Shown here piece after piece: positions 316 through 9,709 of a stretch of DNA of 9,709 nt. Location of the stretch: the IMG/VR virus record IMGVR_UViG_2529292908_000016; one strand, 5' to 3'. The notes under the pieces are model-generated. The model saw only the letters and a list, made by a program, of their open reading frames with translations. It had not been told where the DNA came from and searched no databases. The position numbers and the translations under genes were made by a program. The DNA comes from a virus (lineage: Duplodnaviria > Heunggongvirae > Uroviricota > Caudoviricetes). Each line of letters starts with the position of its first letter. Positions within the stretch are counted from its first letter, which is position 1.

Positions 316-701
316 GGTGACAGCCCCTATGTTGAATTCAATGAACTCACCACCAAGGCTTTCCACGACCATATAGGTGGTGAGACGTACAGGGGTGGAA
401 ATACCGGTCAACATAGAACCCGGCCCAACCGAAGTTGGCCCTGCACGCCCCACCATAATTTGGGCGTAACGATGCTCATGACACGAAAAAACCGCATGAG
501 CGCGGTTGTGCTCTATATTGAATTTCGGGTTTCCACGCCCGGCACCCGCTTTATAAGGTGCAGAGACAGTGTAACGTCCCGAAATTGCAGAATCAATATT
601 TGGTCTTGAAATGATCATATAGCTGCTGATATCTTTAGAACTGTTCTTGGATGTTTCAGAGCCGTTTTATGCGAAACAGCTCCCCGTTATTGATGTTGAG
701 T

Positions 702-727
702 GAGCCGGGTTACTCCCGGCTTTTTTT
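702..727 (+). terminator. Rho-independent terminator, plus-strand orientation (GCCGGG-ttact-CCCGGC stem-loop followed by T7)
   Basis: Perfect 6-bp GC-rich stem at 704..709 and 715..720, 5-nt loop, then seven T at 721..727. On the minus strand the same hairpin is preceded by A-run and not followed by U-run, so it is a canonical terminator only for plus-strand transcripts. Confidence 0.6.
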
Positions 728-1434
728 CACCGCTGCCAACCAATAACCTGAAATAACCCCATTTTCGGGTGATACCAGCGAGTCCCTCGCGGTTCTGCTT
801 CCTCCATAACCCGATAAAAAGCAGCCATAAACGGTTCCACAGCAACAATTGCGCGACGTGACAACAATCCGTCCGGCGTCATGAACTCATGGGTGTCTGT
901 AGGAATCTGATAGGCGTTCACCAGATTGCGGCATTTATCATCTGACAAACCGGTTTTTGCTTTCAGTTGGCGATATCCGGCATAGCCCTCACGAATAGTG
1001 CCCTTTTTAATTTGCTCGACTGTTTCAGCAACGTGGCTGACTTTTTCTTCCACCTGAGTGATCCGTTTCTGTTGGCGAACGGCTTCAAGAGCCATCGCGG
1101 CAACCATTTCGATTTCGCTCATTGGCTTACGGATCTGTTCTTCCAGTTCGCGCCAGCGATCTACCAGGCGAGCTGTGAATTCAGGACAGAGCTGTGCGAC
1201 GACAATGATGCTGTCGCGCTTACCTCGTTCACCTTCGAATACATACGCGCTAGAAAATCGGCGAGGCCCAAGTGATTGTTTATTCTCAATTTCCACAGTC
1301 TGTGGAAATTGGATGATTCCCTTTTTAGCCAGTGTTTCAATAGTTCTCTTAACACTATCTGGTCGGCTTCCCACCAGCTCTGCGATCTCAACGCTGGTCA
1401 TGGATGCTTTGCCGTTAAAAATTGCGGTGTTCAT
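727..1434 (-). CDS. Phage regulatory protein with N-terminal winged-helix DNA-binding domain (Rha/ORF6N/antirepressor-like)
   Basis: 235-aa ORF; AGGAGA Shine-Dalgarno 6 nt upstream of ATG at 1434..1432. N-terminal segment SVEIAELVGSRPDSVKRTIETLAKKG resembles the helix-turn-wing pattern of Rha/antirepressor N-domains; the C-terminal half is unrecognised. Stop TGA at 729..727. Confidence 0.65.
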   Translation of the reverse strand: MNTAIFNGKASMTSVEIAELVGSRPDSVKRTIETLAKKGIIQFPQTVEIENKQSLGPRRFSSAYVFEGERGKRDSIIVVAQLCPEFTARLVDRWRELEEQIRKPMSEIEMVAAMALEAVRQQKRITQVEEKVSHVAETVEQIKKGTIREGYAGYRQLKAKTGLSDDKCRNLVNAYQIPTDTHEFMTPDGLLSRRAIVAVEPFMAAFYRVMEEAEPRGTRWYHPKMGLFQVIGWQR

Positions 1435-1658
1435 TGTTGGTCTCCTGTGGGCTTGTCATCTTCTGTATTCGCTAGACTTGGGTGTGTATATGGAATGCTC
1501 GGATCCAGATGACAAAGAATGGCAACATCCTCCGGAACACCTCGCGTTTTCCACTTTCCAACACCTTGACTGCCACGAGGCCTTCCTTTCTTTGGGAACC
1601 TGCGACCAATAGCGGCATTGGTTTTAAATTGAATTTTTAATATTTCATAAAGGGTCAT
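1431..1658 (-). CDS. Hypothetical small basic protein (75 aa) in the cro-like position; ATGA-coupled to the downstream gene
   Basis: Its stop TGA (1433..1431) overlaps the ATG (1434..1432) of the 727..1434 gene, a typical translational-coupling arrangement. Sequence is Gly/Pro/Arg/Lys-rich with no recognisable HTH and the Shine-Dalgarno is weak (GAGA), so coding status is uncertain. Confidence 0.3.
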   Translation of the reverse strand: MTLYEILKIQFKTNAAIGRRFPKKGRPRGSQGVGKWKTRGVPEDVAILCHLDPSIPYTHPSLANTEDDKPTGDQQ

Positions 1659-1769
1659 TCTTTAGTCTCACACCAGATACTTTGTTATCCAACGATGTTA
1701 ACCACAGGAACCCAAAGTATCAAGAAATTCTGTTACTTTAGTATCAACAGCCATGAGAGGAGAAGAAAA
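1659..1769. promoter_or_regulatory. Divergent control region between the leftward operon and the CI-like repressor gene, with repeated operator-like motifs
   Basis: Motif CAAAGTATC at 1713..1721 (plus), its reverse complement GATACTTTG at 1676..1684, and a degenerate copy TTTAGTATCAA at 1737..1747. Candidate leftward promoter read on the minus strand: TTGATA, 17-bp spacer, TAACAT, overlapping the motifs. Confidence 0.5.
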
Positions 1770-2426
1770 ATGAAGTCTTTAGGTGAACGTCTCATCAACG
1801 CACGGCAAAAAGCTGGGTTAACACAAGATGCGTTGGCTAAAAAAGCTGGGGTCACCAGAGTTGCAATCAGTAAAGCCGAGCAAGGCCTTACAAAAAGTTT
1901 CAACGGTGACACCCTTTTTAAAGTTGCAGCTGCACTGCGGTGTTCACCGCAGTGGCTTCAGAACGGAGATGAAAAAGATAAGCATTGGGAAAATAATGTT
2001 AAGAGCTGCCCACAGAGAGACACAGCACACTCTTACCCTGTAATTAACTGGGTTCAGGCAGGATTATTCGCAACTTCTGGTGATGACTACAACATGTATG
2101 ATCAGGATAATTGGAGGCATTCTGTAAAATACGCTGGTGAGAGGGGGTTCTGGCTGGAAGTGCACGGAGACTCAATGACTTCGCCCGTAGGAATAACATT
2201 TCCTGAAGGAATGTCGATCCTTGTCAACCCAGATAAAGAAGTTTTTTCAGGGTGTTACGTCATCGCCAGAAAAAAATCTACCAATGAAGCAACATTCAAA
2301 AAATATATTTCTGACATGGGAAAGGCGTTTCTAAAGCCCCTTAATCCACAATATCCAATCATAGAAATGGACAATGATTGCGAAATAGTAGGTGTTGTGG
2401 TTGATGCCAGGTGGGATATTTTCTGA
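1770..2426 (+). CDS. CI/LexA-like phage repressor: N-terminal XRE-type HTH plus C-terminal S24 peptidase (autocleavage) domain
   Basis: Strong Shine-Dalgarno GAGAGGAGA 6 nt before ATG at 1770 (the track ORF begins further upstream at 1695 on a weaker start). N-terminus MKSLGERLINARQKAGLTQDALAKKAGVTRVAISKAEQG is a classic HTH. C-terminus has the S24 hallmarks: an Ala-Gly linker (VQAGLF), GDSM serine motif and a downstream Lys (ARKK). Confidence 0.85.
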   Translation: MKSLGERLINARQKAGLTQDALAKKAGVTRVAISKAEQGLTKSFNGDTLFKVAAALRCSPQWLQNGDEKDKHWENNVKSCPQRDTAHSYPVINWVQAGLFATSGDDYNMYDQDNWRHSVKYAGERGFWLEVHGDSMTSPVGITFPEGMSILVNPDKEVFSGCYVIARKKSTNEATFKKYISDMGKAFLKPLNPQYPIIEMDNDCEIVGVVVDARWDIF

Positions 2427-2529
2427 CCAGACACAAAACACAAAAAGAAACCAAAGTATCAAAAATCACTTGCCACGCCTTGATACCTTAGTTACCATAA
2501 AACAAAGTTCGTAACTGAGGTATCATCTC
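2427..2529 (+). promoter_or_regulatory. Intergenic regulatory region with operator-like motif and candidate sigma70 promoter for the downstream HTH gene
   Basis: CCAAAGTATCAA at 2451..2463 is a near-identical copy of the site at 1712..1723. Inverted half-sites GTATCAA (2457..2463) and TTGATAC (2480..2486). Candidate promoter TTGCCA (2470..2475), 17-bp spacer, TACCAT (2493..2498). GAGG Shine-Dalgarno at 2517..2520. Confidence 0.35.
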
Positions 2530-3033
2530 ATGATCAATAAAGCTACAACTCTTGACTGTCTCGAAGAACTGAAAAACCTCGGCAGCCTCATTACACTAAT
2601 AGCAAAAGCAACACCTGATGCTACGCTCTCTAGCGATATAGAGTCATGCGCAGGACTGGCATGGGATATGACAAATAGCATATCCAGAAAGCTATCGTCA
2701 GCAATGCTTTTACAGAACAAAAATTCTGCAATCAACAACCGTCTTCGCACCCAACGCGAAGCCTGCGGCTTAACAACCGCCGAACTCGCCAGGCTGCTCG
2801 ATCTCGATGAAGAAATTATCATCCAGTGGGAGAGCGGAGAGTATGAACCAACTATCAGTATGCTTATCCCACTGGCAAATATTCTTGGCTGCGATCCGAT
2901 GTGGCTGTTAACTGGTGAGGTTACTCCTCCGGAGCAACCAAAAAGTGAGGAGCAGCAACACCATGACGCATCTCAACAAGTTTGCCCCTTATCTCGCGAA
3001 GCTCTTCTGCGGAAGAACCAATACCAATGGTGA
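2530..3033 (+). CDS. XRE-family helix-turn-helix DNA-binding protein (167 aa) with an unrecognised N-terminal region of about 65 aa
   Basis: HTH_XRE signature in the C-terminal half: INNRLRTQREACGLTTAELARLLDLDEEIIIQWESGEYEPTISMLIPLANILGCDPMWLLTGE. Same strand and immediately downstream of the CI-like repressor. Confidence 0.7.
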   Translation: MINKATTLDCLEELKNLGSLITLIAKATPDATLSSDIESCAGLAWDMTNSISRKLSSAMLLQNKNSAINNRLRTQREACGLTTAELARLLDLDEEIIIQWESGEYEPTISMLIPLANILGCDPMWLLTGEVTPPEQPKSEEQQHHDASQQVCPLSREALLRKNQYQW

Positions 3034-3161
3034 CATAATCGCCGCTTCGCCCCTCAAGGTACATGCGAACATTTTTATCAATCATTGCGGAAACAGTCTC
3101 AATATGAAAACACTTCTGAGACTCGCTATATAGCAGAACATATAAGTCAGCTGAGGAAGCC

Positions 3162-3527
3162 ATGAAAAAGTTCGAAAACATAACTGTTCTCCATGTTGAT
3201 GACTTTGATTATACAAACCCGGAACTTCTCCCGGAGGTTGTAAAGGCAATAGATGTTGCCGATATAGTGATTAGAGAAAAGAGAATTGTCAAAAACAGGC
3301 TCGCATGCACTTCAGGAGCAATGACAGAAACAACCTCACAGCAAGATAATTACGAAGGCATTTGTCTGGAGCCTGATTCATTTGCGGTAAATGTTTATCA
3401 TTTATTGCATGCAACACAGGTATTACATATGTCCAGTAATCACGAAACGAAAACACTCGGCAGCGAAATTCTGAGTTTTGCATGTGAGTATACAAAAGCT
3501 GCTGCCGAAAAAGAATTAGCGCAATAA
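3162..3527 (+). CDS. Hypothetical protein (121 aa)
   Basis: ORF with GAGGAAG Shine-Dalgarno just upstream of ATG at 3162; no recognisable motif. Followed by an inverted repeat CGCAATAA...TTATTGCG and a T-rich tract. Confidence 0.55.
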   Translation: MKKFENITVLHVDDFDYTNPELLPEVVKAIDVADIVIREKRIVKNRLACTSGAMTETTSQQDNYEGICLEPDSFAVNVYHLLHATQVLHMSSNHETKTLGSEILSFACEYTKAAAEKELAQ

Positions 3528-5343: not shown

Positions 5344-5515
5344 CTATCAGGCACTGCGCGAGGCGGCGGAACAGGCAACGCAAGATGAATGGGTAGCATA
5401 TATTTTGCCGGGTCATAACGGCATTTATCCTGCGCGCACGTCTGAGGGTAGGCATTGTGCGGATACTTTATTGACTGGCCTGGCGTCTGTCAGGGGCGGG
5501 AGAGCATCAACATGA
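5330..5515 (+). CDS. Short ORF (61 aa) carrying an Ead/Ea22-like N-terminal module; possibly a gene fragment
   Basis: AAGGAGG plus GTG start; the first ~17 codons (MSKIDYQALREAAEQA) are paralogous to the start of the 6015..6692 gene. Stop overlaps the next ATG (ATGA). Confidence 0.4.
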   Translation: MSKIDYQALREAAEQATQDEWVAYILPGHNGIYPARTSEGRHCADTLLTGLASVRGGRAST

Positions 5516-8106: not shown

Positions 8107-8343
8107 ATGGGCAATGTGATTCAACTGGCTCCCAATGAATGGGTTTGTGAAAGCGTTCTTATCGCAATTACCGGGCTCAAACCAGGCACAATTCTTCGGG
8201 CCCGGAAAGAATGCTGGATGGTTGGAAGAGAGTATATTCACGTATCACCAGACGGTAATCCAAAGCCTTCCAGTGAATGTATGTATAACAGAAAAGCAAT
8301 AGATGCCTGGGTCGCCTCAATGAAAAACAAACAACCCAGGTGA
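8107..8343 (+). CDS. xis: Excisionase-like small DNA-binding protein (78 aa)
   Basis: GAGGT Shine-Dalgarno 5 nt before ATG at 8107. Lies immediately upstream of the integrase on the same strand, with size and basic/aromatic composition typical of winged-helix excisionases. The call rests on position and composition, not a verified domain hit. Confidence 0.65.
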   Translation: MGNVIQLAPNEWVCESVLIAITGLKPGTILRARKECWMVGREYIHVSPDGNPKPSSECMYNRKAIDAWVASMKNKQPR

Positions 8344-8398: not shown

Positions 8399-9709
8399 AT
8401 GGATAAAGTCAAATATCCAACAGGCGTCGAAAACCACGGCGGCACATTACGCATCTGGTTTAATTTTAAAGGTAAACGTGTCAGGGAAAATCTTGGTGTC
8501 CCTGACACTGCCAAGAACAGGAAGATCGCCGGGGAACTGCGGACATCAGTATGTTTTGCCATCCGCACAGGAAGCTTTGATTATGCTGCACAGTTCCCTG
8601 ACTCCCCCAACCTTCAGGCTTTTGGGGTAAGTAAAAAAGAAATTACGGTGAAGGAACTTGAAGAAAAGTGGCTGGATCTGAAACGAATGGAAATCTCTGC
8701 AAATGCATTCAATCGCTATGAATCCGTTGCAAGAACGATGGTTCCGAAAATTGGAGGCAGTAGACTGGTGTCATCGGTAACCAAAGAGGAATTGCTGTAT
8801 ATCAGGAAAGATTTGCTGACCGGGTATCAGAATTCAATGAAAAACAAAGCAGCAAAAGGACGGAGCGTTGTTACTGTAAATTATTACATGACGACAATCG
8901 CTGGAATGTTTCAGTTTGCTGCAGATCACGGTTACTTAGAAGCAAATCCCTTCCAGGGAATTAAGCCTCTTAAAAGAGCCAGGGCAGAGCCAGATCCGCT
9001 AACTCGTGACGAATTTATTCGCCTGATAGATGCTTGCCGACATCAGCAGACGAAAAACCTGTGGTCATTGGCTGTGTACACAGGAATGCGTCACGGTGAA
9101 CTGGTCTCCCTGGCCTGGGAAGATATCGATCTGAAGGCAGGAACAATTACCATCAGGCGCAATTATACGAAACTTGGTGAGTTCACTCTACCGAAAACTG
9201 AAGCAAGCACAAACAGGGTTGTGCACCTTATCCAGCCCGCTATCAGTGTCCTGAAAAATCAGGCTGAAATGACAAGACTGGGTAAGCAGTACAACATCAA
9301 GGTGCAACTACGTGAATATGGACGTTCAGTGAACCATGAATGTACTTTCGTGTTTAACCCTCAAGTGGTTAGAAAAAGCGAACAGGTAGGTTTTGTCTAC
9401 AAAGTCGATTCTGTAGGTGACTCATGGGAAACAGCCATTAAGCGTGCAGGGATCAGGCATCGAAAGGCATACCAGTCACGACACACTTATGCGTGCTGGT
9501 CATTATCTGCCGGAGCAAACCCAAGCTTCATTGCCAGCCAGATGGGCCATGCAAGTGCCCAGATGGTATTCAATGTATACGGAGCATGGATGACTGACAG
9601 CAATGCAGAACAGATCGCAATGCTGAATCAGAAGCTGACAGATTATGTCCCAATGATGCCCCATAGTCACCAAAGTGACACCAGAGGCTTATTAAAATCA
9701 GTAAGTTAA
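8399..9709 (+). CDS. int: Tyrosine-type site-specific integrase (436 aa)
   Basis: GGAGG Shine-Dalgarno 5 nt before ATG at 8399. Catalytic-domain hallmarks are present: TGMRHGEL (box I Arg), SRHTYACW (H-x-x-R region) and MGHASAQMVFNVYGAW (catalytic Tyr). The N-terminus YPTGVENHGGTLRIWFNFKGKRVREN looks like an arm-type DNA-binding domain. Stop TAA is the last codon of the window. Confidence 0.9.
   Translation: MDKVKYPTGVENHGGTLRIWFNFKGKRVRENLGVPDTAKNRKIAGELRTSVCFAIRTGSFDYAAQFPDSPNLQAFGVSKKEITVKELEEKWLDLKRMEISANAFNRYESVARTMVPKIGGSRLVSSVTKEELLYIRKDLLTGYQNSMKNKAAKGRSVVTVNYYMTTIAGMFQFAADHGYLEANPFQGIKPLKRARAEPDPLTRDEFIRLIDACRHQQTKNLWSLAVYTGMRHGELVSLAWEDIDLKAGTITIRRNYTKLGEFTLPKTEASTNRVVHLIQPAISVLKNQAEMTRLGKQYNIKVQLREYGRSVNHECTFVFNPQVVRKSEQVGFVYKVDSVGDSWETAIKRAGIRHRKAYQSRHTYACWSLSAGANPSFIASQMGHASAQMVFNVYGAWMTDSNAEQIAMLNQKLTDYVPMMPHSHQSDTRGLLKSVS

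Follow-up and report, generated by a model that had tools for sequence, protein, structure and literature searches.

The words repeated on both sides of the cI gene in this stretch of DNA are very probably the operators with which a phiP27-like prophage controls a lambda-type lysis/lysogeny switch. The predicted operator is a 14-bp pseudo-palindrome, GATAC-N4-GTATC, and it occurs six times, with three sites between the cro-like gene and cI and three just downstream of cI. Together with three predicted promoters, the operator and its six positions give a testable map of the switch. A full-text literature search did not find the operator sequence of the phiP27-type switch, and a prior description is not fully excluded.

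The immunity module and its occurrence

The window, by which we mean the whole stretch of 9709 nt that was analysed, is assigned by sequence comparison to a phiP27-like prophage of E. coli and is 95.8% identical to phage phiP27. Its gene order runs from a cro-like gene on the minus strand through cI on the plus strand to an early operon that reaches xis and int. The cro-like gene (1431..1658, minus strand, 75 aa) is the first of a leftward PR-type operon and is followed there by a Rha/Ant-like gene (727-1434, minus strand). The cI gene (1770..2426, plus strand) encodes a repressor of 218 aa with an HTH_3 N-terminal domain and an S24 autopeptidase C-terminal domain. The pL-type operon begins with a gene for a 167-aa helix-turn-helix (HTH) protein (2530..3033, plus strand), contains xis (8107-8343, plus strand) and ends with int (8399-9709, plus strand). 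This immunity module was found in 197 of 5426 complete E. coli genomes (~3.6%), and it is also present in Stx2e (phiP27), Stx1a and Stx2a converting phages. In the Stx-carrying relatives the switch would gate prophage induction and thereby toxin expression.

The two domains of CI are well supported in Pfam (HTH_3, 1.6e-14; Peptidase_S24, 3.2e-22). The protein matches lambda CI (3bdn) over its full length (E 9e-34), and its VQAG, GDSM and TFKK motifs align with the cleavage site of the lambda protein and with its catalytic motifs. For the N-terminal domain, 434 Cro and P22 c2 are matches at ~1e-8, 434 Cro being the best among solved structures (E 7e-9), and VTRVAISKAEQ is presumed to be the recognition helix. 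RefSeq labels the gene 'LexA family protein'. The divergent 75-aa protein has no match in Pfam, NCBIfam or PDB sequence searches and is identified by fold comparison only, which gives it a Cro fold and so places a small Cro-type gene divergent from cI. The locus thus appears to have the make-up of a lambdoid switch, with an HTH repressor of the LexA-like, S24 self-cleaving type, operators that overlap divergent promoters and a second operator set at OL/pL.

The repeated word and the proposed 14-bp operator

A sequence-only reading of this DNA had described a 9-mer, CAAAGTATC, as an operator-like motif repeated in both control regions of the immunity module. Exact copies are present at 1676-1684 (minus strand) and 1713-1721 (plus strand), as it had stated, and at 2452-2460 (plus strand), one base from the 2453-2461 that it gave; GTATCAA, placed by it at 2457-2463, is likewise present one base away at 2456-2462. 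Its extended flanking match is a 12-mer, CCAAAGTATCAA, common to 1712 and 2451, and both the degenerate copy at 1737-1747 (TTTAGTATCAA) and TTGATAC at 2480-2486 are where it had put them. The idea that the motif marks operators of the CI-like repressor in both control regions is supported, with a different unit: a 14-bp pseudo-palindrome with 5-4-5 layout in place of the 9-mer. The 9-mer is itself not an operator and is read here as the consensus half-site plus the centre of GATAC-N4-GTATC. We infer an ideal operator of the form GATAC-TTAA/TTTA-GTATC, of which each site would have one near-consensus and one degenerate half. The near-consensus half is GATACYT, and its reverse complement falls within CAAAGTATC. 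The form of the half-site, the stoichiometry of one dimer per site and the gloss given to the distal sites derive from the site alignment together with lambda and 434.

The exact 9-mer occurs three times against ~0.07 expected, always within the 214 bp of intergenic DNA. With one mismatch allowed it occurs five times in the whole window against 2.3 expected, a figure that is weak alone, as at least five copies arose in 18/200 shuffles. The pattern GATACNNNNGTATC, allowing at most two mismatches, has 10 matches in the window against 2.63 expected (1/200 shuffles); six of the ten lie in the two control regions (214 bp) and the other four represent the background level. The copy with one mismatch at 5462-5470, which the sequence-only reading had suspected of being due to chance, lies in coding sequence, has three mismatches as a 14-mer and falls within this background count. 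The complete 42.6-kb phiP27 genome has only two exact copies of the 9-mer, both in the two control regions. The 14-mer pattern has 25 matches there where 18.7 are expected, a surplus of six that the control-region sites account for exactly. The half-site GATACYT is found five times in the control regions and three times elsewhere. In a blind palindrome scan of the two control regions, covering 1024 five-base arms and 11 spacer lengths, GATAC-N4-GTATC was the single best pattern with six matches, the runner-up having four. Some palindromic pattern with six matches arose in 3/300 shuffled control regions (~1%); the control regions are AT-rich, and the within-window statistics alone are only moderate.

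Predicted operators and promoters between the cro-like gene and cI

The three sites that had been proposed upstream of the repressor are recovered as three 14-mers, at 1676-1689, 1708-1721 and 1732-1745, with centre-to-centre spacings of 32 and 24 bp. They can be compared with two relatives, L106, whose CI is 86% identical, and a Serratia prophage (L005), whose CI is 51% identical and whose OR spacing is also 32/24. OR-a (1676..1689, GATACTTTGTTATC) has one mismatch to GATAC-N4-GTATC and covers about +1 to +13 of the predicted PR. It is a perfect palindrome, GATACTTAAGTATC, in Stx2_12E129, and its position is kept in L106 and Serratia. PR itself was predicted by promoter scan at 1695..1723 on the minus strand, with a -35 hexamer TTGATA (1723-1718), a 17-bp spacer and a -10 hexamer TAACAT (1700-1695). 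Both hexamers lie within blocks that are invariant or nearly invariant across 23 haplotypes, and sequence reading gives equivalents in L106 (TTGATA-18-TACATT) and Serratia (TTGCCA-17-TACCTT). OR-b (1708..1721, GAACCCAAAGTATC, two mismatches) overlaps the PR -35 and spacer and holds the 9-mer at 1713-1721; the block CCAAAGTATCAAG at 1712-1724 is invariant in the 23 haplotypes, and the site is kept in L106 as GAATCTAAAGTATC.

The promoter for cI, PRM, is predicted from sequence reading at 1731..1739 on the plus strand as an extended -10 element, TGtTACTTT, without a good -35. The phages phiP27 and Stx and the relative L106 all retain the TG-N-TACTTT motif, as does the Serratia locus at 51% identity. 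TAGTAT (1739-1744) was considered as an alternative -10 and rejected, its key second base taking all four bases among haplotypes. OR-c (1732..1745, GTTACTTTAGTATC, one mismatch) overlaps the PRM -10; its TACTTT and GTATCA are invariant in the 23 haplotypes, and counterparts stand at the same spacing in L106 (GCTACTTTAGTATC) and Serratia (GATACTTTAGTTTA). OR-b has its centre only ~32 bp ahead of the predicted PRM start, which leaves too little room for activation by a lambda-like class II contact; CI may therefore not activate its own promoter, or PRM may have been wrongly assigned.

Two other readings of this region were discarded. A 26-bp inverted repeat, AAAGTAtC...GtTACTTT (1714-1739), pairs at 8/13 positions as a single site and spans two independently conserved 14-mers. 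For a LexA/SOS box (CTGT-N8-ACAG), the arms of the sole CTGT...ACAG pair, at 1730-1750, stand 13 bp apart, and the box was rejected because of this spacing and of a right arm that varies among haplotypes.

Predicted operators and promoter downstream of cI

A single site had been proposed downstream of the repressor, lying there 'rather than at a separate pL'. Three sites are present, of which 2511-2524 had been missed and 2482-2495 half seen, and the region is itself best regarded as OL/pL. A pL-type promoter was predicted by promoter scan at 2470..2498 on the plus strand, with TTGCCA (2470-2475), 17 bp and TACCAT (2493-2498). It is conserved in phiP27 and the Stx phages, and sequence reading finds counterparts in L106 (TTGCCC-17-TACCAT) and Serratia (TTGAAC-17-TACAGT). 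Because this conserved sigma-70 promoter heads the plus-strand operon that runs from 2530 to xis and int, the region downstream of cI is taken as the OL/pL equivalent. No terminator-like site was found between cI and 2530.

The OL sites lie at about -51, -16 and +12 relative to the pL start. OL-1 (2447..2460, GAAACCAAAGTATC, one mismatch), which holds the 9-mer at 2452-2460, has its centre ~51 bp upstream of the predicted start; its AGTATC is invariant in 25 haplotypes, and in L106 the site is a perfect GATACTTTAGTATC. OL-2 (2482..2495, GATACCTTAGTTAC, two mismatches) lies in the pL spacer and -10, its off-consensus arm GTTAC overlapping the -10 hexamer TACCAT. The block TTGATACCTTAGTTACCAT of this site is nearly invariant among haplotypes, and counterparts lie in the promoter spacer of L106 and Serratia. 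OL-3 (2511..2524, GTAACTGAGGTATC, two mismatches) extends over ~+6 to +20 of pL and covers the Shine-Dalgarno sequence GAGG (2517-2520) that serves the following gene. The site repeats OL-2 almost exactly in inverted orientation; its TCGTAACTGAGGTATCA does not vary among 25 haplotypes, and L106 has the same sequence. The spacing from OL-2 to OL-3 is 29 bp here and 26 bp in L106, unlike the prediction of strict pairwise cooperativity. The pairing of GTATCAA with TTGATAC as one inverted pair, a 30-bp site at 2456-2486, was rejected because relatives carry perfect 14-bp palindromes at each end separately; the pair joins arms of two different operators.

It may be that the sites fall into two sub-classes, a CCAAAGTATC type (OR-a, OR-b, OL-1) and a GTWACTnRGGTATC type (OR-c, OL-2, OL-3). 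A more speculative suggestion is that CI, Cro and the third HTH protein would discriminate between the two types.

Conservation and co-variation with the repressor

The arms of the sites are conserved while the DNA around them diverges. Among the 23 OR and 25 OL haplotypes, 9/60 arm columns are variable compared with 67/130 other intergenic columns (p = 1.2e-6), and between the window and L106 identity is 54/60 in the arms and 64/130 at other positions (p = 2e-8). In these comparisons OR-b and OL-2 overlap promoter hexamers, a confounding source of conservation, and the conservation of OL-3 could stem from a ribosome-binding site or RNA hairpin instead of repressor binding. All six sites are kept in L106, one of them perfect, and all six matches to the pattern in its 5.6 kb fall at homologous positions. 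The overlap of promoters by sites is itself conserved in the phiP27, Stx phage, L106 and Serratia lineages.

More distant relatives keep the layout and change the word. The Serratia relative, with the helix VSRMAISKIEM, has TAAAC-N4-GTTTA sites with perfect copies on both sides of cI, and in a CUS-3/HK629-like group (CI ~46% identical, helix VSNAAISQWER) the pattern that flanks cI on either side is TTAAG-N4-CTTAA. From these alignments, GATAC, TAAAC and TTAAG, with the 5-4-5 design kept and the half-site changed, appear as a small natural example of repressor-operator co-evolution. The earlier suggestion of an OR/OL-like operator set thus gains support from conservation, from co-variation with the repressor and from promoter overlap.

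A model of the switch and its alternatives

In the lambda-style switch that we favour, a CI dimer with a 434/P22-like HTH domain and a lambda-like C-terminal domain would bind each 14-bp site. OR-a would cover the PR start, OR-b the PR -35 and OR-c the extended -10 of PRM, and from this placement CI would turn off the cro/Rha/replication operon and, when abundant, PRM as well, making OR-c the autorepression site of cI. The three OL sites bracket the pL-type promoter and would keep the operon that reaches xis and int silent. These six sites are presumably also used, in the opposite sense, by the Cro-fold 75-aa protein, and induction of the prophage would follow when RecA stimulates CI to cleave itself at Ala97-Gly98 (Ser135, Lys177). 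CI binding, the order of occupancy, cooperativity, any OR-OL looping across the ~770 bp between the two sets and any activation of PRM by CI are all inferred.

The repeated words might instead be chance repeats in AT-rich intergenic DNA, or mere promoter hexamers, and not repressor-binding sites at all. The lack of significant enrichment of the one-mismatch 9-mer (5 against 2.3 expected, 18/200 shuffles) and the 1% of shuffled control regions that yield some six-match palindromic pattern would fit such an origin, as would the facts that the strong arm of OR-b coincides with the PR -35, that the weak arm of OL-2 does so with the pL -10 and that TTGATA is the reverse complement of TATCAA. We nevertheless consider it very improbable, as OR-a, OR-c, OL-1 and OL-3 lie away from -35 hexamers, the arms are kept while the flanks diverge, relatives have perfect 14-bp palindromes at the same positions, and the half-site shifts with the recognition helix in two distant lineages in which 5-4-5 is kept. 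Only a little less improbable is that the operators are read mainly by the 167-aa HTH protein (2530-3033) or the Rha-like protein (727-1434), with CI acting elsewhere. The 167-aa protein (PHROG 4739) does have a C-terminal HTH_3 domain (Pfam 3.8e-11), a match to the CII-like PHROG 4836 and a DicA-like profile match; its N-terminal domain travels with immunity type, it co-occurs with this CI in every relative having GATAC sites, and the position of OL-3 on its ribosome-binding site would suit autoregulation. Against this, the OR/OL design, with its matching sites flanking cI, is retained in the Serratia relative, where the downstream gene encodes an unrelated 70-aa protein that lacks this HTH. 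PhiR49_2 and ASU11, heteroimmune phages that differ in cI, cro and intergenic sequence, have in common with the 167-aa protein only its HTH half; the DNA specificity of the protein would therefore not be immunity-specific, and the half-site tracks the CI recognition helix.

A further possibility, compatible with the lambda-style switch, is that OL-2 and OL-3 act mainly as RNA, or have a dual use as DNA operators flanking the pL start and as an RNA hairpin hiding the ribosome-binding site of the first early-left gene; we regard both forms as possible, if unlikely. In read-through RNA from PRM and cI, the inverted 15-mers would pair with each other and so occlude the Shine-Dalgarno sequence of the gene at 2530-3033, and pL transcripts, starting between OL-2 and OL-3, would leave it free. 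The predicted stem is 15 bp (-20 kcal/mol, z -4.3) and 0/200 shuffles fold as well, a result to be set against the fact that two copies of a palindromic operator will always be complementary to each other. The off-consensus arm GTAAC of OL-3 is the exact complement of the promoter-constrained arm GTTAC of OL-2, and L106 keeps the stem, a C-to-U change still pairing while the loop differs in sequence and length; however, no two-sided compensatory change was seen among the haplotypes and relatives compared, and haplotype L055 (GACAC) breaks one pair with no compensation. In ASU11 a comparable pair of inverted operators surrounds the pL -10 and extends over the Shine-Dalgarno sequence, but the Serratia relative is without such a pair. 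The lack of a terminator-like site between cI and 2530 would also suit a hairpin, PhiR49_2 having a terminator after cI instead. If the hairpin were real, it could shield the early operon of a lysogen from maintenance transcription, with no terminator needed behind cI.

Comparison with known switches

The map of the lambda-style switch makes no conceptual addition to the lambda paradigm, and it defines an immunity group distinct from lambda, 434, P22 and 933W. Lambda has the same order of cro, divergent promoters, cI and a leftward early operon ending in xis and int, and likewise has three operators at OR and three at OL that overlap promoters. The C-terminal domain of its CI is clearly homologous, with the Ala-Gly cleavage site and the Ser/Lys motifs aligned, whereas the N-terminal domain here is of the 434/P22 HTH_3 type. 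The operators are 14 bp here and 17 bp in lambda, and OR spacing is 32/24 bp here and roughly 24/23 bp in lambda. The PRM of the window resembles an extended -10 promoter, unlike that of lambda; OL/pL follows cI directly, without rexAB and without a detectable terminator; of the OL sites, one is placed downstream of the pL start and covers the ribosome-binding site of the gene that follows; and the first pL gene encodes an HTH protein, not N. In 434 and P22 OL/pL also stands directly after the repressor gene, lambda differing only by rexAB in between.

Phage 434 is closer in its operators, which are 14-bp pseudo-palindromes (ACAA-N6-TTGT) read by an HTH_3 domain, and the sites here appear to share both their length and their two-fold symmetry. 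The half-site is nonetheless ACAA in 434 and GATAC here, the layout 4-6-4 as opposed to 5-4-5 and the recognition-helix residues QQS as opposed to TRV, with low full-length identity. With a half-site GATAC(Y)T, whose specificity is unlike ACAA...TTGT, the element falls outside the 434 immunity group. HK022, considered as the nearest characterised relative, was dropped when tblastn of CI against the HK022 immunity region gave nothing significant. The nearest relatives of CI outside the phiP27 group, at 45-51% identity, are those of CUS-3, HK629, mEp235, Salmonella As1-type phages and the Serratia prophage; we found no experimental operator data for any of these sets. All carry 14-bp sites of the same 5-4-5 design on either side of cI, and since their TTAAG or TAAAC half-sites match different recognition helices, they should form immunity groups separate from the GATAC group.

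The immunity region and its genes

The window, 9.7 kb long, is one arm of a prophage. Its positions 1400-3200 match phiP27, a Stx2e phage, at 95.8% identity and several Stx1a and Stx2a converting phages at 85-86%, and of 5426 complete E. coli genomes 197 carry the cro-like/cI segment (1431-2529). The minus strand carries a Rha/Ant-like gene (727-1434) and a 75-aa ORF with a Cro fold (1431-1658), which we refer to as cro-like; the plus strand carries a CI-type repressor with HTH_3 and Peptidase_S24 domains (1770-2426), a 167-aa HTH_3 protein (2530-3033), a series of ORFs from 3162, an excisionase-like ORF (8107-8343) and the integrase (8399-9709). The repressor is matched along its full length by lambda CI (3bdn, E 9e-34), in an alignment that takes in VQAG, the cleavage site, and the two catalytic motifs, GDSM and TFKK. 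The closest matches of its N-terminal domain are 434 Cro and P22 c2, and its presumed recognition helix is VTRVAISKAEQ.

The 75-aa protein belongs to a family spread over the Enterobacterales, with members in Klebsiella, Yersinia, Citrobacter, Photorhabdus, Providencia, Salmonella and Xenorhabdus, which is named "hypothetical" in every source and has neither a Pfam nor an NCBIfam model. Its invariant VGKW..GVP..VAILCH motif is preceded by an unusual basic loop, P-(K/R)-(K/R)-G-x-x-R. The pL-type operon opens with the gene for the 167-aa protein, a mosaic with a junction near 2743. From about this point its C-terminal HTH half is 91-99.8% identical in the heteroimmune PhiR49_2 and ASU11; the N-terminal ~70 aa change together with cI and cro, and the N-terminal domain therefore seems to be part of the immunity-specific module.

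A 14-bp site in both control regions

A 9-mer, CAAAGTATC, had been picked out by the sequence-only reading as a repeated operator-like unit. The copies are real, with exact matches at 1676-1684 (minus strand), 1713-1721 and 2452-2460 (both plus strand), and all three fall within the intergenic DNA on either side of cI, 214 bp in total. The coordinates given for the third copy and for GTATCAA were one base too far to the right; the remaining details were correct. The whole 42.6-kb phiP27 genome holds only two exact copies, one per control region. With one mismatch allowed the word is unimpressive alone (five matches in the window against 2.3 expected), and it is not the whole unit, comprising a consensus half plus two centre bases. 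The unit itself is revealed by alignment of both control regions with relatives: at the position of the inverted 9-mer copy, Stx2_12E129 has a perfect 14-bp palindrome, GATACTTAAGTATC.

Scanned as GATAC-N4-GTATC with up to two mismatches, the window has 10 matches against 2.63 expected, a number reached by one of 200 shuffles. Six of these lie in the control regions and the other four equal the background expectation. Between the cro-like gene and cI are the predicted operators OR-a (1676-1689, GATACTTTGTTATC), OR-b (1708-1721, GAACCCAAAGTATC) and OR-c (1732-1745, GTTACTTTAGTATC); some 770 bp away, downstream of cI, are OL-1 (2447-2460, GAAACCAAAGTATC), OL-2 (2482-2495, GATACCTTAGTTAC) and OL-3 (2511-2524, GTAACTGAGGTATC). 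The complete phiP27 genome has 25 matches against 18.7 expected, the six extra being the control-region sites. As a guard against circularity, all 1024 five-base arms were enumerated with spacers of 0-10 in the control regions, where GATAC-N4-GTATC was the unique best pattern (six matches) and the runner-up, with four, was a variant of it; only 3 of 300 shuffled control regions reached six matches for any pattern. In each site one half is close to consensus (GATACYT) and the other is degenerate, and GATACYT occurs five times in the control regions against three in the other 9.5 kb. The previously proposed GTATCAA...TTGATAC inverted pair dissolves on this map, as it joins arms of the separate sites OL-1 and OL-2.

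Conservation and co-variation of the sites

Comparative data are the strongest line of evidence for the predicted operators. Among 70 close relatives, which gave 23 distinct OR and 25 distinct OL haplotypes, 9 of 60 columns vary in the arms as against 67 of 130 in the other intergenic DNA (Fisher p = 1.2e-6, OR and OL haplotypes). In L106, a less close relative whose CI is 86% identical to that of the window with an unchanged recognition helix, 54 of 60 arm positions are identical against 49% outside the sites (p = 2e-8); all six pattern matches in its 5.6-kb locus are at homologous positions, the OR spacing of 32/24 bp is that of the window, and OL-1 is a perfect GATACTTTAGTATC. In more distant CI relatives the design of the predicted site is retained and the half-site word is altered. 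In a Serratia prophage, with a CI of 51% identity and the helix VSRMAISKIEM, the sites read TAAAC-N4-GTTTA, with perfect copies on either side of cI and 32/24 bp spacing, and in the CUS-3/HK629-like group (CI ~46% identical, helix VSNAAISQWER) TTAAG-N4-CTTAA flanks cI on both sides.

Directly after the cI stop (2431-2445), an ACACAAA(A) repeat is present in one to three units among otherwise near-identical prophages, a change in copy number that probably reflects slippage in an unconstrained spacer.

Promoters and the predicted switch

Consensus scanning predicts a leftward promoter for the cro-like operon, PR (minus strand; TTGATA 1723-1718, 17 bp, TAACAT 1700-1695), and a rightward pL-type promoter (plus strand; TTGCCA 2470-2475, 17 bp, TACCAT 2493-2498). 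Both are kept in close relatives, and equivalents can be read in the L106 and Serratia sequences. The best candidate for the cI promoter, PRM, is an extended -10, TG-N-TACTTT (1731-1739), which is invariant across all haplotypes and also found in L106 and Serratia; TAGTAT was rejected as an alternative -10, its second base varying freely among haplotypes. Given these assignments, OR-a lies over the PR start, OR-b over the PR -35 and spacer, and OR-c over the PRM -10; relative to the pL-type promoter, OL-1, OL-2 and OL-3 are centred near -51, -16 and +12. OL-2 has an off-consensus arm, GTTAC, because this arm overlaps the -10 TACCAT. A lone operator after cI in place of pL had been proposed, but the region has three sites around a conserved promoter heading the int-proximal operon, and is therefore read as OL/pL. 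In 434 and P22, OL/pL lies immediately after the repressor gene.

The arrangement suggests a lambda-type switch, in which CI dimers would repress the cro/Rha/replication operon from OR-a and OR-b and the operon running to xis and int from the OL sites, with OR-c serving autoregulation of cI. Cro would act on these sites too, to opposite effect, and the prophage would be induced through RecA-stimulated cleavage of CI at Ala97-Gly98. Only ~32 bp separate the centre of OR-b from the predicted PRM start downstream of it, so that a lambda-like activating contact is doubtful, or PRM is misassigned.

Alternative explanations

Chance repeats, or sequences conserved only as promoter elements, would not be expected to co-vary with the recognition helix or to occur on both sides of cI, whereas both properties, the latter in every lineage, are expected of repressor operators; this reading is contradicted by the co-variation, the conservation footprint and the perfect palindromes in relatives. 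It is also unlikely that the sites are read by the 167-aa HTH protein instead of CI, given that the Serratia relative retains the OL design though its downstream gene encodes an unrelated 70-aa protein, and that the HTH half is common to PhiR49_2 and ASU11, two phages with a different cI, cro and intergenic DNA.

As RNA, OL-2 and OL-3, which are 15-mers in inverted orientation with nearly the same sequence, would fold into a 15-bp stem (-20 kcal/mol, z -4.3) hiding the Shine-Dalgarno GAGG (2517-2520) of the gene at 2530-3033. Both arms would occur together only on cI read-through transcripts, the predicted pL start lying between them, and no terminator-like site was found between cI and the OL/pL region; ASU11 has an analogous inverted pair, and in PhiR49_2 cI is followed by a terminator in place of such a pair. 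An RNA-level role for the two sites, compatible with their being CI operators, nevertheless seems improbable to us, as complementarity is built into palindromic operators and no two-sided compensatory change was found.

RNA features at the left end

Two Rfam matches above gathering score, a C4 antisense RNA (373-460, minus strand, 82.4 bits) and the Hfq-binding RNA isrK (485-561, minus strand, 61.6 bits), occupy the gap between the Rha-like gene (727-1434) and a Rha/Ant-domain ORF whose start is near 313 and which continues past the left window end. The pair looks like the RNA control of an antirepressor of the P1 immI or Gifsy-1 IsrK type, and if so would add another layer of immunity; the mechanical ORFs that cover 214-615 are probably non-protein-coding. 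At ~700-727 on the plus strand, GCCGGG-TTACT-CCCGGC followed by a T run, read from the sequence, looks like an intrinsic terminator. This candidate is flanked on both sides by minus-strand genes or RNA genes, and may end an antisense or small plus-strand transcript or work bidirectionally.

Relation to known systems

Literature searches by motif string and keyword, with a scope outside the original phiP27 paper, found no published description of phiP27-type operators. The practical value of the present work is a predicted map of operators and promoters for an immunity type frequent in E. coli and borne by Stx1a, Stx2a and Stx2e phages, and the half-site series across lineages offers a tidy natural example of repressor-operator co-evolution. 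The half-site differs from that of 434, which places the module outside the 434 immunity group; it has every feature of the lambda/434/P22 class of switches that can be tested in sequence.
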